This document shows positions 2,969 to 55,295 of a stretch of 64,000 nucleotides of DNA, in pieces. The notes beneath the pieces were generated by a model. The model was not told the DNA's origin. It searched no databases and saw only the letters and a program-made list of their open reading frames with translations. Numbering within the stretch: the stretch's first letter is position 1; every line of letters starts with the position of its first letter. The DNA lies in NCBI GenBank assembly GCA_025611195.1, contig GCA_025611195.1_4718.1. The stretch is one strand, 5' to 3'. Made by a program: the position numbers and the translations under genes. This stretch comes from a phage.

Positions 2969-2974
2969 CATATT

Positions 2975-3006
2975 CCCTCCTCCTTCCCTTACGGGTTGGA
3001 GGAGGG
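2975..3006. terminator. conserved two-tier GC hairpin (family copy, inverted orientation)
   Basis: CCCTCCTCC/GGAGGAGGG 9-bp stem enclosing CCC-TTAC-GGG; lies between convergent genes; A10 run at 3021..3030. Confidence 0.45.
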
Positions 3007-3041
3007 TTATGCCGTCAAGCAAAAAAAAAATGATAGTCACG

Positions 3042-3063
3042 GACCCTCCAATGAAGGAGGGTC
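3042..3063. terminator. GC hairpin
   Basis: GACCCTCC aatgaa GGAGGGTC, 8-bp perfect stem just downstream of the 3077 gene stop. Confidence 0.4.
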
Positions 3064-3076
3064 GTGACCGTCAGTT

Positions 3077-3778
3077 TTAGGATGTAGATAATCTCGCGTA
3101 CTTCTGGCGAACATGGTTCTTACGGCGAACTTCGTCATCCTCGTCACGCCATTCGAGGTAAGCAACGAATCGACGTAACTGTGCTGCTGTCATCGTTGAC
3201 GATCGGTCTTCTACATCTAGAACGACGTAACGAACGCCACCAACATCATCGCATTCAACGTAATTGAATACCATAAGACCATCACCGTATTCAACGACGG
3301 TAACTTCGAACCGTTTCTCGAACAAATAAAACAGTTCTGATTCGATGATCATCGGAATGACGCTTATATCAGCACGATCGAGGATTTCCATCATCGCCCG
3401 TAACGCGCGAGGAGTATGGCGAGCGAACTGACCGTTAAAACGTTCTCTCATCGCTTGTTCCACGCCATCTGTTTTTGTTCCAAACCAAGGACGTATTACA
3501 GATTTCGGTGGTGTAAGACGAAAGCGATATGCTTGTATAAACAACAGAATATCAGCGGCGTTAGGAAATTCTTCCTGGTCTTCGTATATCTTGCGGATAA
3601 TATCCGGAATCGTAACCATCAAGTATTTCTTATCGCCTCCCACTTTCTCGAGATTAGCAATATGCCCTTCTACTACCGGCTGGTAAACGAAATTATACCA
3701 ATGACGGTATCTTGCGGCACGCTGGTAGTTCGGGATAAAATTAAGAACAACATTCACTGCACGTTTTAACGGGTTCAT
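3077..3778 (-). CDS. hypothetical protein
   Basis: ORF 3077..3781; ATG at 3778 with GAAGGA upstream. Confidence 0.55.
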   Translation of the reverse strand: MNPLKRAVNVVLNFIPNYQRAARYRHWYNFVYQPVVEGHIANLEKVGGDKKYLMVTIPDIIRKIYEDQEEFPNAADILLFIQAYRFRLTPPKSVIRPWFGTKTDGVEQAMRERFNGQFARHTPRALRAMMEILDRADISVIPMIIESELFYLFEKRFEVTVVEYGDGLMVFNYVECDDVGGVRYVVLDVEDRSSTMTAAQLRRFVAYLEWRDEDDEVRRKNHVRQKYARLSTS

Positions 3779-5527: not shown

Positions 5528-5551
5528 CACCTAGGTAATATAGCCGTGAAA
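5528..5551 (-). promoter_or_regulatory. conserved TATATTAC-containing motif (candidate phage promoter)
   Basis: Plus-strand CACCTAGGTAATATAGCCGTGAAA; about 25 nt upstream of ATG 5503 on the minus strand. Confidence 0.45.
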
Positions 5552-5652
5552 AATGTTGGAGTACATCGAATTCCACCACCGCGGCTATTTTATGGGCTAA
5601 GAGCCTAAACCAATCATCTTCGAAATCATCATCTACGAAACAGGAACCTATC

Positions 5653-6474
5653 ATGGATAAAGTATTTGTTTGTAAGCTGTTTACTAATGGCAATAGCCAA
5701 CCGATGTATCTGACCGATCCTGTTCTGGGTAATCGAAACAGCACCGTATTTAAAGAAGCTATCGATTACGCCAAAAACAAAGCCGTGAGAACACTGACGT
5801 CCGATGACTGTATCAATGGTATCACGTGGGCAGAGTTATTCGGCGATGCTGTTAGACACTTCATTCGGGATGCAAGAAAACAGGAAATCAGCCTCACGAC
5901 TATTGTTGTGCGCGAAAACGCAGAAATTTTATCAAACGTTTTGGTTGATTTTAGTGACGTTTACGTGTTTAATCCAGAGAACACTTTTGAACAATACCTT
6001 GCTGCCCTGAACAAACAGCTCGGTAAAGATATTCATCCCGAATTCGCCAAGTTAACGTATCAAGTACTTTTTAACGACGTCGATCCAAATACGAAGATCA
6101 ATACCAGCTTGTCGCCCCTGGTAAAGAAATACGGATCGGTTCTTGCTACAGCAACACCCGCCATCGATGGCGGTTATGATATCGAATTAGATGGTCCATT
6201 AAAAGAACAAGAACCTACTGGGGTTCGGGCAATACACCATACCCTCGTCGTTAAATCCGATGGTTGTGATGAGCATTACGCTATGACAAACGATGAAAAT
6301 AATCACCGTTTAACTCAAGCGATCGGTGTTCTACGTTATACCGAACCAACCACCGTAGACGATTATACTTCGACAACAACGCACACCACGTGTTTCATTT
6401 TCATTTATCCAAATGAAAGTGTGTACATTACTGACTGCTACGGCAACACTGTAGATAGCTTACGTCGTTATTAA
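5653..6474 (+). CDS. hypothetical protein
   Basis: ORF with ATG and AGGA upstream; followed by a UUCG-loop hairpin plus T-run. Confidence 0.55.
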   Translation: MDKVFVCKLFTNGNSQPMYLTDPVLGNRNSTVFKEAIDYAKNKAVRTLTSDDCINGITWAELFGDAVRHFIRDARKQEISLTTIVVRENAEILSNVLVDFSDVYVFNPENTFEQYLAALNKQLGKDIHPEFAKLTYQVLFNDVDPNTKINTSLSPLVKKYGSVLATATPAIDGGYDIELDGPLKEQEPTGVRAIHHTLVVKSDGCDEHYAMTNDENNHRLTQAIGVLRYTEPTTVDDYTSTTTHTTCFIFIYPNESVYITDCYGNTVDSLRRY

Positions 6475-6480
6475 TCATCG

Positions 6481-6505
6481 AGCCTGTCCTTCGGGGCAGG
6501 CTTTT
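6481..6505 (+). terminator. intrinsic terminator with UUCG tetraloop
   Basis: AGCCTGTCC-TTCG-GGGCAGGCT stem-loop followed by TTTTAT, 7 nt after the stop of 5653..6474. Confidence 0.6.
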
Positions 6506-6809
6506 ATGCTGCTAAATATCGGGAATAAGAATTAACAAAATAGGAAAATGGTGTGAATATAACACAAAGGAGGGAGATGATTATGTTACTCATTCTAATG
6601 GAGAGGGCGTTGCTGGCGGGTATATGCGCATTCTCTGTTAAACACGCTGTTGCTATCATGACTGAAGAAAGGCGTAATACGCATAATGTATTACGCTGAA
6701 AACAATGTCTGCATTAGTGTATGACGAGAAATCGTCGAGGCCCCCGTCTTCACGAGGGCCAACACCTATGCGCGACTATTTACCATCTACGAAACAAAGG
6801 GTTATAAAC

Positions 6810-7118
6810 ATGAGCAATTTGAATGTTGAATTTACTTCAACAACGCCTGTCATGAATGGCGTTGGTACTGAAACCAAGATCGTATTAGAACCCATTCCGG
6901 GGTTACGTGATCTCGGCGATTTTTACCAACTGATGCCACGTATACGGAAAGCCTTAAACAGCATCGATCTCGATTCTGATAAAGATTTCCAACACGATAC
7001 AGAAAATACCGATCATGTGCTGCTACCATCAGGAGTAGCAAAATTCACCTACACGCAAACATTGAAAGCCTCCGATGGTGAAATCCGTCGTTTTATTGTT
7101 GAAGTAGAAAGCGCATAA
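6810..7118 (+). CDS. hypothetical protein
   Basis: ORF 6705..7118; ATG 6810 has AAAGGG upstream, whereas ATG 6705 lacks an SD and would add a P/S/R-rich extension; start uncertain. Confidence 0.4.
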   Translation: MSNLNVEFTSTTPVMNGVGTETKIVLEPIPGLRDLGDFYQLMPRIRKALNSIDLDSDKDFQHDTENTDHVLLPSGVAKFTYTQTLKASDGEIRRFIVEVESA

Positions 7119-7122
7119 AAAC

Positions 7123-7154
7123 CATCCTCCCAACCCGTCAGGGAAGGGAGGATG
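7123..7154. terminator. conserved two-tier GC hairpin (family copy)
   Basis: CATCCTCCC/GGGAGGATG stem with loop AACCCGTCAGGGAA; between convergent genes. Confidence 0.45.
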
Positions 7155-7171
7155 AAATATGCCGTTATATG

Positions 7172-7801
7172 TTATTCAACAAATCCCGCGTTCAACAAAT
7201 TGTCGTAAACACGATTAGCGACATCAACAGGAGAATGTGTGTTACTGGTGTCTATACACAACGTTTTCGCGTCGCCGAGATAGTCCATAAAATCCATGTA
7301 ACGATAACGTCGTTTATTGAATGTCGCTTCATCGATGTTATCAAACATCTGATGTTTAGCGTGGCGAACACGGAACCGTCTTAAATACGTAGGATAGTCA
7401 ATATCCAGATAAACGTAGTAAGATGGCATGATAATCGACGGTAGGTTCGGCAACAACGCATCAAACAGCTTAACGTTAGCATCATTAACCTGATAAACGT
7501 ACGTCGAAGCAATCGAACGATCGCTAAGCACAGTCTTCCCTTCGTTAAGGGCTGGATGAATCACCTTATTGAAGAGATGATTCCGTTGCGACATCATCGC
7601 CAATAGTTCAGTTTCTGGATCGAATCTGTTCGTTGGCGTCTGATCTTCCAGGATAAGTTTACGAATCGCTTCTCCGTAGAGTGTACCGCCGGGTTCACGT
7701 ACAACACAGACATTGTTTAAACGACTGTGTAAAGACGAGATAACCGAACTCTTTCCTGAATAATCCAGACCTTCAATAACGATATATTTATTACGAGACA
7801 T
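7172..7801 (-). CDS. tmk: thymidylate kinase (dTMP kinase)
   Basis: P-loop KYIVIEGLDYSGKSS, REPGGT and LSDRSIASTYVYQ motifs match the Tmk family; ATG at 7801 with SD. Confidence 0.8.
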   Translation of the reverse strand: MSRNKYIVIEGLDYSGKSSVISSLHSRLNNVCVVREPGGTLYGEAIRKLILEDQTPTNRFDPETELLAMMSQRNHLFNKVIHPALNEGKTVLSDRSIASTYVYQVNDANVKLFDALLPNLPSIIMPSYYVYLDIDYPTYLRRFRVRHAKHQMFDNIDEATFNKRRYRYMDFMDYLGDAKTLCIDTSNTHSPVDVANRVYDNLLNAGFVE

Positions 7802-7817
7802 TCCCCGCTCCAATTAA

Positions 7818-8999
7818 CTATTTCGTTTTTGCCGTCAACGGTTGCGATACCGTAATCTCGACACGATTCTCATCGGTACGTTTAACGATGATAAGGTTGC
7901 GCTCGTCACCGAATGGTTCTGCTACCTTGGAAGCCTCTTTAAGATTTTCAAGAATCTCACCGAAAGCTTCAAATACCGCAAAACCAGAGCTAACATCAAT
8001 TCTTACTAAATGTACACGCATATCGTTTACGGTAACGGTGTCATCCGTCTTGAACCCGCAACAGGAGGGTAGACAGAACTGACCATTAACGCAGTTATCT
8101 AAGTATGCTTCACCGCCGAACATTTCTATTAACGTCACCGGTTTAAATGTTTTCTCTGGGAAAGCACTATTAAGGGTATCGTTTCCGTTCACGAACCAGA
8201 TCGTTACTTTATCTTCGGAATACGCTAGTCGGTACGGTTGGGTTGCGGACGCTTGCGCTTTATGCTGGTTAAATAACTTTGATTTTGTCGCAATCGCAGC
8301 ACGACCTTCGACGTCGAAGTACAGAACTTCATATCCAACACATCCGATAAACACGCGACGGTTATTAAGTTCCGGAATTCTGACTAATAATGCTTCACCG
8401 TTGTATCCAGTAGGAACAATACCGCGTAGGATGATAGATTCATTGTTCAATACCGAGTTATCTGCAGTGATACTTCGCATTACCGCTGGCGTCACTATTT
8501 TATCTGCGGTAGGTTCAGGTTGCTCAGCAATGCGGTCAAAAGGTTCGATGGTTACCGCGGGAACGAAGTATTCAACTATATGCTTGTTTTCAGCACCAAC
8601 GTCCATGACGGTGATCTGCAAACGCGTAGCATCCGAATTCAATGCCTGTCTCACACGTTCTGCATTAGGAGTATCGCGGTCAATATGAATCAAGGCTTTT
8701 ACCACACCGTCGTCTTCCAACCATCCTGTTAAAACGCGACCGACGATATCATTCACGTCACGAATCGGGAAGCGCAGTTCAGCGCCATCGAGCACTGCTT
8801 CGATTTTACTGCTAGTGACGGGCACCTTACCGTCGTTAAGATGTGCCAACAGACCGGTTAATGCATCTTCACTAACCGGATATTTTGTCGTTGTACTGAC
8901 CAACGGTACGATAAAACGATCTTCGCTGTATTTCTCTGCACCACAGATAACCGGGACTTGAGGGCATTGATCAACTAGGCCCCACTCAACAGTATTCAT
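7818..8999 (-). CDS. hypothetical protein
   Basis: 393-aa ORF, ATG with GAAGGA upstream; tightly packed in operon with tmk. Confidence 0.55.
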   Translation of the reverse strand: MNTVEWGLVDQCPQVPVICGAEKYSEDRFIVPLVSTTTKYPVSEDALTGLLAHLNDGKVPVTSSKIEAVLDGAELRFPIRDVNDIVGRVLTGWLEDDGVVKALIHIDRDTPNAERVRQALNSDATRLQITVMDVGAENKHIVEYFVPAVTIEPFDRIAEQPEPTADKIVTPAVMRSITADNSVLNNESIILRGIVPTGYNGEALLVRIPELNNRRVFIGCVGYEVLYFDVEGRAAIATKSKLFNQHKAQASATQPYRLAYSEDKVTIWFVNGNDTLNSAFPEKTFKPVTLIEMFGGEAYLDNCVNGQFCLPSCCGFKTDDTVTVNDMRVHLVRIDVSSGFAVFEAFGEILENLKEASKVAEPFGDERNLIIVKRTDENRVEITVSQPLTAKTK

Positions 9000-14135: not shown

Positions 14136-14158
14136 AACAAAAAAGAAATATAACATAG

Positions 14159-14193
14159 CCTCCTTCCCCGGCCTTGGTGGCTAGGGAAGGAGG
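14159..14193. terminator. GC hairpin (family-like stem, different loop)
   Basis: CCTCCTTCCC/GGGAAGGAGG 10-bp stem; between convergent genes; A-rich run upstream. Confidence 0.45.
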
Positions 14194-14208
14194 ATTATAG
14201 TTTATTTA

Positions 14209-18821: not shown

Positions 18822-18911
18822 CTAAAAAAGATCCTCTGTTTTTCACGTTAATTAAACAACGTATTGATTTCTATTTAACGCAATACGAACATTGTACGTA
18901 TGCATCATGAA

Positions 18912-18929
18912 GGTAATATAGTCGTGAAA
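18912..18929 (-). promoter_or_regulatory. conserved TATATTAC-containing motif (candidate phage promoter)
   Basis: Plus-strand GGTAATATAGTCGTGAAA; about 90 nt upstream of the first gene of the small-gene cluster (ATG 18821). Confidence 0.45.
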
Positions 18930-19031
18930 GGATTTGCATTAAAGCAAGGGTTTTGTTTTAAGAAGGGATGGATTTAGAAGAGGTGTTTCAAGGAAGGTAA
19001 ACGAGGATAGGTATTTTGATTTAAGTAAGAT

Positions 19032-19396
19032 GTTATCTGTATTTGTTAAAAGTGTATTGTCTATGTTATCTTGTTTATCTTAGGTTATGTCTTATTGTTT
19101 AATCGTTTTATCTTTGTAGGTTAAATTGTTCTAGTTATCTTGTTGTATAAAGTAATTCAATAAGCTTATCTTCAAAATGATAAATAACTTGTGTTTATTG
19201 TACATGCTAATCAAAAAACCATTTGTGATACTCTTCTTCACGTTGTTCATCAGAGTATCTCGTCTATACTCATTGCATTCGTATACGACATAACCGTTAT
19301 ACGCTAACGCTACGCTTATAGCTTGATAACTCTAAGGATAAAAACATAAACTCGCTTCGCTCGTTTAGTTTTTCTTTTTCTTAGAGTTATCTTGTT
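19032..19396. repeat. iteron-like direct repeats (GTTATCTTGTT) in AT-rich non-coding region
   Basis: Exact 11-mer at 19065..19075, 19134..19144 and 19386..19396, plus at least four degenerate TTATCTT copies at 19032..19180. Confidence 0.5.
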
Positions 19397-19557
19397 GCTC
19401 GTCTCTAAAGGACTTCGCTCCTCCCCCGTCCCCCGAAGGGGCCGAGGTCGTGGAAATTTTACTTTCCAAATACATTTACAACATCTGTAAACTTTTACTC
19501 CAGGTACTTAATCTTATCATTAGAAATTATAAAGAGAAGAATAAACACAAACATAAA

Positions 19558-19589
19558 CCTTCCTCCAACCCAACAGGGAAGGAGGAAGG
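19558..19589 (-). terminator. conserved two-tier GC hairpin (family copy)
   Basis: CCTTCCTCC/GGAGGAAGG stem, loop AACCCAACAGGGAA; directly after stop of 19603..20496. Confidence 0.45.
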
Positions 19590-19602
19590 GGATTAATTAA
19601 AA

Positions 19603-31515: not shown

Positions 31516-31525
31516 ACAAACATAA

Positions 31526-31557
31526 CCCTCCTCCAACCCATCAGGGAAGGAGGAGGG
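31526..31557. terminator. conserved two-tier GC hairpin (family copy)
   Basis: CCCTCCTCC/GGAGGAGGG stem, loop AACCCATCAGGGAA; between convergent genes. Confidence 0.45.
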
Positions 31558-31566
31558 AATATGTTG

Positions 31567-40591: not shown

Positions 40592-40622
40592 ACGGATGTA
40601 AAAAAAAATAACACATAGTTAA

Positions 40623-40657
40623 CCTTCTCCCCAACCCGATGAGGGAAGGGGAGAAGG
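40623..40657. terminator. conserved two-tier GC hairpin (family copy)
   Basis: CCTTCTCCCC/GGGGAGAAGG stem, loop AACCCGATGAGGGAA; A9 run at 40600..40608; between convergent genes. Confidence 0.45.
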
Positions 40658-40673
40658 GCTATGCGCTATTTAA

Positions 40674-51861: not shown

Positions 51862-51887
51862 ACGCAAAAAAAAAAGATTGTACGGTT

Positions 51888-51919
51888 CCCTCCTCCAACC
51901 CGTAAGGGAAGGAGGAGGG
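51888..51919. terminator. conserved two-tier GC hairpin (family copy)
   Basis: CCCTCCTCC/GGAGGAGGG stem, loop AACCCGTAAGGGAA; A10 run at 51866..51875; between convergent genes. Confidence 0.45.
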
Positions 51920-51934
51920 TTATGACCGCGGTGG

Positions 51935-55145: not shown

Positions 55146-55201
55146 GTTTGTATCCTCGGTTATTAAGAGAAATTTACAGTGATAACAGTAAGCGTTGTTA
55201 T

Positions 55202-55225
55202 CACCTAGGTAATATAGTCGCGAAA
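55202..55225 (-). promoter_or_regulatory. conserved TATATTAC-containing motif (candidate promoter) overlapped by a palindrome
   Basis: Plus-strand CACCTAGGTAATATAGTCGCGAAA; about 57 nt upstream of ATG 55145; inverted repeat GTGATAACA-N8-TGTTATCAC at 55179..55204. Confidence 0.45.
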
Positions 55226-55259: not shown

Positions 55260-55291
55260 CCCTCTCCCAACCCGTCAGGGAAGGGAGAGGG
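55260..55291 (-). terminator. conserved two-tier GC hairpin (family copy)
   Basis: CCCTCTCCC/GGGAGAGGG stem, loop AACCCGTCAGGGAA; immediately after stop of 55296..56663. Confidence 0.45.
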
Positions 55292-55295
55292 AATA

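Follow-up and report, generated by a model that had tools for sequence, protein, structure and literature searches.

A short stretch of phage DNA (positions 6475-6809 of a stretch of 64,000 nucleotides (nt), called the window below, from contig GCA_025611195.1_4718.1) raises the question of whether it encodes a small protein, a regulatory leader peptide, or a functional nucleic acid element. In a sequence-only reading, a 40-codon open reading frame (ORF) was described between a terminator and a gene at 6810-7118, with a strong Shine-Dalgarno sequence and with last codons that overlap a perfect inverted repeat, and it was suggested to specify either a small hydrophobic protein or a leader peptide whose translation would control the hairpin in an attenuation-like manner. 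The terminator hairpin (6481-6502) and the downstream gene are both where they had been placed. As assessed by megablast, window positions 5600-7900 are 93.4% identical to Escherichia phage vB_EcoM_Goslar, with no other match in the phage collection. Goslar, a Goslarvirus, is a jumbo phage that encodes chimallin and forms a nucleus. In the window, the ORF is flanked by the orthologues of gp005 (5653-6474) and gp007 (6810-7118), and its own counterpart is annotated in Goslar at the homologous position as gp006 (HOV27_gp006, YP_009820691.1). It is, hence, not newly called, but an existing Goslar annotation that until now was without supporting evidence: the Goslar record labels gp006 only "hypothetical protein," and the hairpin and the block to which it belongs have no annotation there. 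As detailed below, the most interesting feature of the locus is this block, a single-copy element of 101 nt with a predicted fold, of which the sequence-only reading had seen only the edge. Our preferred reading, to which we assign a probability of roughly 0.55, is that gp006 is a real gene and that the block acts at the RNA level, post-transcriptionally, on the gp006-gp007 message, and not by attenuation.

Coding was assessed by comparing homologous loci from 21 genomes (Goslar, two IMG/VR contigs, and 18 metagenome or assembly contigs), with an unbiased set of 13 genomes found via gp007, DNA identity, or the exact 21-mer of the hairpin, and thus independently of the peptide. In this unbiased set, codons 2-30 display 16 synonymous and 6 non-synonymous changes, and the variable sites are distributed 5/2/15 over codon positions 1/2/3, i.e. 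15 of 22 are third positions. When the same substitutions were randomly re-dealt over the same bases, the mean was 7.6 synonymous changes and 16 were reached in 0.02% of the cases (p = 0.0002), with p > 0.97 in the same permutation test for the other two + strand frames over the small ORF. Three-base periodicity, absent in every frame from the 76 nt upstream in these 13 genomes, begins at the small ORF. The synonymous excess persists in the full 21-genome set (p = 0.02), despite the bias of that set against such a result, and, although codons 2-22 carry 13 synonymous changes, residues 1-23 of gp006 hardly vary. The synonymous excess and the third-position bias in the unbiased set show that 6583-6699 is a genuine protein-coding gene under purifying selection.

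A first selection test, on loci retrieved via nine 90%-identity protein clusters, had given 11 synonymous versus 14 non-synonymous changes (p = 0.11), and was rejected as biased because cluster representatives are distinct amino acid (aa) variants, which inflates non-synonymous counts. As a caveat of method, in these loci (L008-L016), sampling by 90%-identity clusters masked selection on a 38-codon gene (p = 0.11 versus p = 0.0002). An antisense 51-aa ORF (6504-6659, - strand), which shares third positions with the small ORF, was also considered. The excess is weaker in the overlap (11 versus 6, p = 0.003), and beyond the overlap this ORF shows no synonymous excess and has acquired stop codons; it was rejected as a candidate gene.

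The ORF from ATG 6577 to TGA 6697-6699 is present and encodes the peptide quoted in the sequence-only reading, and the Shine-Dalgarno sequence is equally real, with AGGAGG (6568-6573) contained within AAAGGAGGGAG (6566-6576). The product is, however, most likely 38 rather than 40 aa long, starting at the in-frame ATG 6583, because AGGAGG is separated by 3 nt from ATG 6577 and by an optimal 9 nt from ATG 6583, the ATT codon between the two ATGs shows non-conservative variation in relatives (ATC, ACT, and AAC), position 6583 is GTG, still a start codon, in one relative, and 6583 was chosen as the start by the Goslar annotation and by all metagenome gene calls. Most intergenic AGGAGG in the window are not ribosome-binding sites because they are arms of terminator stems; the one at 6568 is the sole intergenic AGGAGG that is not a terminator arm.

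The suggestion that the ORF specifies a small hydrophobic protein is borne out by purifying selection (p = 0.0002), by hydropathy, and by structure prediction. Averaged over 19 residues, Kyte-Doolittle hydropathy reaches 1.97 (residues 1-19) and 1.69 (residues 9-27), the hydrophobic moment being low, and an AlphaFold model consists of a single helix spanning residues 2-37, with a predicted local distance difference test score (pLDDT) of ∼91 for residues 1-20. The C-terminal tail (EERRNTHNVLR) is basic. gp006 matches no family in Pfam, NCBIfam, or PHROGs, and when 1.84 billion representative proteins were searched with a profile, only its own cluster was retrieved. Similarly, no relatives of the gp006 locus beyond Goslar-like phages were found in the phage collection (at the DNA and protein levels), IMG/VR, Escherichia coli genomes, or 596 Gb of genomes. 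These results suggest that gp006 is a lineage-restricted small hydrophobic protein that is probably membrane-associated, and its family is, on the evidence of these searches, confined to Goslar-like phages.

At its 3' end, gp006 contains an inverted repeat that is perfect, as had been reported: GCGTAATAC (6672-6680) and GTATTACGC (6688-6696) are 100% complementary over 9 base pairs (bp), with 7 nt between them. Folded as RNA, this hairpin (HP1) has an energy of -12.7 kcal/mol (z = -4.3) and a base-pair probability of 0.999 in context. The repeat by itself is not beyond chance (among perfect repeats with arms of 9 bp or more and a loop of 3-10 nt, the window contains 7 distinct ones, amounting to 13 nested counts, versus ∼2.1 counts in Markov shuffles), but its conservation is. 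The nine HP1 codons show no variation across the 21 genomes, the sole exception being 6673 C>T, a change present in two genomes that replaces a G-C pair by G-U. Third positions vary in 0 of 9 codons within the hairpin versus 15 of 29 in the remaining ORF (Fisher p = 0.006), indicating that HP1 is constrained at the nucleotide level as a functional element in its own right. An exact 21-mer comprising the hairpin core and loop, GTAATACGCATAATGTATTAC, also occurs, preceded by G, in two otherwise unrelated metagenome contigs (L022 480-500, equivalent to L027 3534-3554, and L024 6251-6271), with zero occurrences in 596 Gb of reference genomes. Given the size of the collection, these copies are probably due to chance.

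HP1 forms the 5' part of a much longer conserved block (Table 1). Within 6672-6772, 6 of 101 sites vary in the 13 unbiased genomes and 8 of 101 in all (∼20), versus 19-26 of 77 in the non-coding stretch upstream in the same genome sets (Fisher p = 4e-4 to 2e-5) and 23-31 of 89 in the body of the small ORF. This makes the block the most conserved part of the 1.5-kb neighborhood, ahead of the ORF itself and of the strongly selected gp007. No second copy was found by BLAST within the 64-kb window or by a covariance model over 170 kb, and the element is absent from E. coli genomes and other genomes (596 Gb). A comparison with Rfam gave no match with E ≤ 10 in 6300-7300 except for a chance microRNA at 13.7 bits, and none at the gathering score window-wide; scans for tRNA, tmRNA, and tandem repeats gave nothing.

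On the + strand, the RNA of the block is predicted to fold as HP1 followed, after the linker, by a three-way junction in which a closing helix (P1) encloses two hairpins (HP2 and HP3). The three-way junction has a minimum free energy of -30.3 kcal/mol (z = -4.4), representing 37% of the ensemble, and all helices of the block have base-pair probabilities of at least 0.99 when folded within 6560-6830. The closing helix adds -11.3 kcal/mol versus -4.8 ± 2.2 for shuffled flanks, beating 99% of them (p ∼0.01). Three substitutions fall in stems, and each keeps or improves pairing on the + strand (6673, G-C to G-U; 6744, C-A to U-A; 6772, U-G to U-A); the remaining substitutions in the block affect the linker, a junction nucleotide, or outer positions, all unpaired. 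Buried in the junction is a potential initiation site, GAGGG-N8-ATG (6755-6770), which metagenome gene callers use for a 116-aa version of gp007.

Table 1. Features of the gp005-gp007 locus, in window coordinates
Feature	Position	Strand	Description
gp005 intrinsic terminator	6481..6508	+	Hairpin 6481-6502 with UUCG loop, then TTTTATG; found as an inverted repeat
AT-rich stretch GGAATAAGAATTAACAAAA	6522..6540	+	Nearly invariant per site; between terminator and Shine-Dalgarno; single occurrence in window
Shine-Dalgarno AGGAGG	6568..6573	+	9 nt before ATG 6583; retained in relatives, GAGGAG in one genome
Small protein gene, Goslar gp006 orthologue, MLLILMERALLAGICAFSVKHAVAIMTEERRNTHNVLR	6583..6699	+	38 aa; Goslar annotation; frame intact in 21 genomes; selection
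Ultraconserved block	6672..6772		HP1, linker, and predicted three-way junction; 3' end CCTATGCG
HP1	6672..6696	+	Overlaps last nine codons of small gene; 11 bp with G-U pairs 6671-6697 and 6681-6687
Three-way junction	6710..6772	+	Predicted (RNAalifold); after 13-nt linker
Closing helix P1	6710-6714 with 6768-6772, 6717-6720 with 6762-6765	+	Predicted; UGCAU/AUGCG, GUGU/ACAC
HP2	6723-6736	+	Predicted; 5 bp, GAAA loop, inside P1
HP3	6739-6760	+	Predicted; 8 bp, CUUC loop, one C-A mismatch, inside P1
Hypervariable spacer	6773..6798	+	18 of 26 sites vary (69%); 1-nt indels
gp007 orthologue	6810..7118	+	102 aa, virion-associated; 98% identical to Goslar gp007

In our preferred reading, gp006 and gp007 would share a single + strand transcript made inside the phage compartment, and the folded block would be a cytoplasmic, post-transcriptional element, either intercistronic or in the 5' leader. 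It might stabilize or delimit the gp007 message, in the manner of devices that combine processing with protection by a 5' stem-loop, and might keep the internal GAGGG-N8-AUG 6768 site closed. The outcome would be differential expression of a small membrane-type protein at low level and of a very abundant virion protein. Functional analogies exist in the ompA leader, papBA, and the T4 gene 32 leader, in which stable stem-loops likewise precede a highly expressed cistron and follow a weakly needed one, although the architecture of the block (a hairpin plus a three-way junction) is unlike that of any of them. ONT-cappable-seq in phiKZ has revealed short, structured, and conserved RNAs derived from 5' untranslated regions (UTRs) upstream of genes; these end at premature terminators, whereas HP1 and HP3 are followed by neither TTAT nor a U-tract, and there is no sequence similarity (PMC10914365).

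Several points weigh against this reading. In codon usage, the small ORF ranks below 96% of real-gene windows and above 85% of spurious ORFs, an intermediate position that is unsurprising because there are only 38 codons, and gp006 is not listed in the accessible part of the Goslar virion mass spectrometry table, which covers virions only. No double compensatory change was found in any pair of the fold, the relatives, which share at least 87% identity, being too close. Loops and linkers vary as little as stems do, which equally fits a DNA-level or a protein-binding role, and the predicted fold of the three-way junction is even more stable for the - strand (-36.1 kcal/mol, z = -5.8). In addition, the gp007 ribosome-binding site is outside the fold, 100 nt away and beyond the hypervariable spacer, and the stabilizing or processing role of the block is one that we infer by analogy.

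In a model phage of the nucleus-forming kind, a gene previously called only a "hypothetical protein" thus gains evolutionary evidence. Both selection on gp006 and the conserved fold are new over the Goslar annotation, and the comparison draws attention to a non-coding, single-copy block whose conservation exceeds that of the adjacent, strongly selected virion gene. To our knowledge, almost nothing is known of how chimalliviruses regulate their genes after mRNA exits the phage nucleus. A conserved structured element before the gene of an abundant virion protein would be a concrete, testable handle on this post-nuclear expression, and Goslar is genetically tractable via RNA-targeting knock-down. 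Phages often have small orphan membrane proteins as well as structured leaders, and nothing established is overturned by these findings.

The main rival to an RNA element, which we regard as possible although doubtful, is that the block is a DNA-level element, namely the promoter/operator of the late gene gp007. Proteins would bind its three different palindromes, which are centered ∼86, 40, and 20 bp before G 6770, this G would be the transcription start within a late-promoter core of the phiKZ type, TATG (6767-6770), and the overlap between the hairpin and gp006 would result merely from tight gene packing. Such an element would be consistent with conservation that spans loops and linkers, not stems alone, and with the position of the block, which ends at most 2 nt from the G of TATG and gives way to hypervariable sequence, like an unconstrained 5' UTR. 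Moreover, gp007 encodes a virion protein and is therefore probably late, and T(-3)ATG(+1) is the sole consensus of phiKZ late promoters (PMC7598289). However, those promoters have no conserved upstream sequence (PMC7598289), the TATG 4-mer is ubiquitous, and none of the palindromes has a second copy in 64 kb. An additional 9-bp closing helix around two hairpins (p ∼0.01) would have no role in a promoter, and all three stem substitutions keep RNA pairing, including a G-U pair, which in DNA would leave the palindrome mismatched.

It is rather unlikely that the block represents a novel type of cis-acting RNA specific to this lineage of nucleus-forming phages, e.g. a protein- or ligand-binding switch or a cytoplasmic-fate signal, with gp006 being functionally linked to it. 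Such a switch could, for example, gate the occluded GAGGG-AUG 6768 site and a coupled gp007 start, or the element could act as a cytoplasmic-fate signal for the gp006-gp007 message.

We consider it improbable that the locus is an antisense module resembling type I toxin-antitoxin systems, in which a - strand small RNA (the three-way junction, a U-rich linker, and HP1 as terminator) overlapping the 3' end of the peptide gene would control gp006. Like toxins or small membrane proteins of the Hok, TisB, Fst, and TxpA type, which have 30-50 residues, gp006 combines one hydrophobic helix with a charged tail, and its ORF lies in a highly structured RNA with a hairpin at the ORF 3' end. The greater stability of the - strand fold points in the same direction, as does the presence after HP1 on that strand of CTTTCTTC, flagged as terminator-like. 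However, the promoter of such an RNA would have to lie at 6777-6809, which is the most variable stretch of the locus and contains neither an early-promoter motif nor a sigma-70-like site, i.e. no conserved antisense promoter was found there. Furthermore, 6673 C>T breaks a pair on the - strand while keeping it on the + strand, a bidirectional terminator (7123-7154) separates the region from the - strand genes, and gp006 has no homology to any toxin family (in Pfam, NCBIfam, PHROGs, and the profile search). The context, a strictly lytic jumbo phage, also differs from that of type I toxins.

About as improbable is that the small ORF is fortuitous and 6506-6809 merely an untranslated leader. This could account for the intermediate codon usage and for the lack of a significant synonymous excess in the biased first data set (p = 0.11), and an open frame of 38 codons is by itself uninformative, with P(no stop) of ∼0.87-0.91 under random placement of the observed changes. 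It is at odds with the unbiased set, in which periodicity starts at the ORF and synonymous changes are in excess (p = 0.0002), and with an AGGAGG at optimal spacing from ATG 6583.

Leader-peptide attenuation, in which translation of the small ORF would melt HP1 or allow it to form and so set read-through into gp007, is the explanation that we consider least probable, and we reject it. Its attraction is evident from a comparison with the attenuators of the trp, his, leu, and phe operons and with translational attenuators of the ermC type, which share with this locus a short ORF with its own Shine-Dalgarno sequence before a gene and a hairpin opened by a translating ribosome. Here, the short ORF is under selection and has a strong Shine-Dalgarno sequence, its stop codon directly follows the hairpin, so that a terminating ribosome must unwind HP1, and 9 of 10 positions of 6623-6632 could pair alternatively with 6676-6685. 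However, unlike in those attenuators, there is no U-tract terminator. HP1 is followed by TGAAAACAATG and HP3 by AACACCTATG, neither of which is a U-tract or the TTAT terminator signature of these phages, and a scan for intrinsic terminators on the + strand of 6506-6809 found none. Nor are there conserved, mutually exclusive pairings, since HP1 pairs at a probability of 0.999 in context and the alternative partner at 6623-6632 covers the variable sites 6624, 6627, and 6630, the alternative pairing being weaker in most relatives. The peptide contains no regulatory codon runs, with no run above two identical residues, and gp007 encodes a virion protein, not a biosynthetic enzyme. The N-terminal 23 residues are selected as a conserved hydrophobic helix, which is atypical of leader peptides that sense amino acids, even if sequence conservation does occur in arrest peptides. 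Finally, the downstream ribosome-binding site is outside the structure, 100 nt off and past the hypervariable spacer.

The cell biology of these phages bears on the same question. According to two reports, chimalliviruses transcribe in ribosome-excluding compartments, Goslar-type phages first in a lipid vesicle and later in a protein-walled nucleus without ribosomes, which uncouples transcription from translation (PMC12908238; 10.1101/2024.03.21.585822). If so, a ribosome cannot pace the polymerase, the relevance to the phage of the window being judged from 93% identity. Ribosomes that open HP1 in the cytoplasm might conceivably still act at the level of translation, but the locus shows no conserved target for such an effect.

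Downstream of the block, gp007 has accumulated 34 synonymous and 7 non-synonymous changes, with ∼20% of its sites varying. By mass spectrometry, gp007 is present at ∼250 copies per Goslar virion, which places it among the most abundant unmodelled proteins (bioRxiv 10.64898/2026.04.21.720040). Neither gp005 nor gp007 has a Pfam, NCBIfam, or PHROGs match, beyond weak PHROG ones for gp005. The spacer that separates gp007 from the block varies more than the synonymous sites of the neighboring genes, and occurs as two main haplotypes plus recombinants. Its 1-nt indels, in an A-run, set ATG 6768 in or out of the gp007 frame (116 aa versus 102 aa). In 6 of 20 genomes, ATG 6768 is not in frame with gp007, and the 116-aa form that starts from it displays 7 synonymous versus 11 non-synonymous changes, i.e. 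no selection, and a further extension from ATG 6705 was rejected since that ATG exists only in window-type genomes. We place the gp007 start at 6810, on comparative grounds, because the extension from ATG 6768 is frame-shifted in part of the genomes and shows no selection.

The Goslar gp005-gp007 region is identical to that of the window in gene order, terminator, hairpin, and three-way junction; its 38-aa ORF differs by one T/A difference and its spacer by a 1-nt deletion. The counterpart of the gp005 terminator is annotated in Goslar at 3508-3527, and this terminator matches the phiKZ-type motif, a stem-loop then TTAT (PMC10914365). The AT-rich stretch GGAATAAGAATTAACAAAA that follows it may be a candidate promoter for the small gene; it does not match the early-promoter motif described below. 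One natural variant, metagenome contig VATA22-2 scaffold_1 (L010), has lost gp005, while the terminator, gp006, the block, and gp007 are all kept. In this contig, the 66 nt at 2281-2346 stand in for the 778 nt at window 5651-6428, i.e. nearly all of the gp005 coding region, and gp005 appears dispensable judging from this deletion.

Elsewhere in the window, near-identical terminator hairpins, CCCTCCTCCAACCC-N4-GGGAAGGAGGAGGG then (T/A)TATG, occur between convergent genes, often on both strands, at 2969-3076, 7119-7171, 14136-14208, 19560-19602, 31516-31566, 40592-40673, 51862-51934, and 55260-55295. This family matches the "stem-loop + TTAT" motif of phiKZ (PMC10914365). The motif TTTCRCGRCTATATTACCT is found three times, on the - strand (5534-5543, 18912-18921, and 55208-55217), each time in an intergenic position upstream of - strand genes, and these copies resemble the AT-rich early promoters, recognized by the virion RNA polymerase, of phiKZ-like phages. 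Exact TATATTAC occurs in the window only at those three sites. An early promoter at the hairpin was considered and rejected, the HP1 arm sharing only TATTAC with TTTCRCGRCTATATTACCT, and a scan for sigma-70 promoters gave one weak site inside the small ORF, fewer than expected by chance. Goslar-type phages do not depend on the host RNA polymerase.

One of the early-promoter motifs lies within an AT-rich stretch of 781 nt (18822-19602) that has no ORF of at least 80 aa and contains scattered TTATCTTG-like words. In Goslar, the equivalent interval separates gp021 from gp022 and is unannotated. No tandem repeat or Rfam match was found in the window stretch. Directly downstream, in the - strand sense, of the motif at 55208-55217 is another perfect 9-bp inverted repeat, GTGATAACA-N8-TGTTATCAC (55179-55204), which would be located at the 5' end of a transcript starting from that motif.

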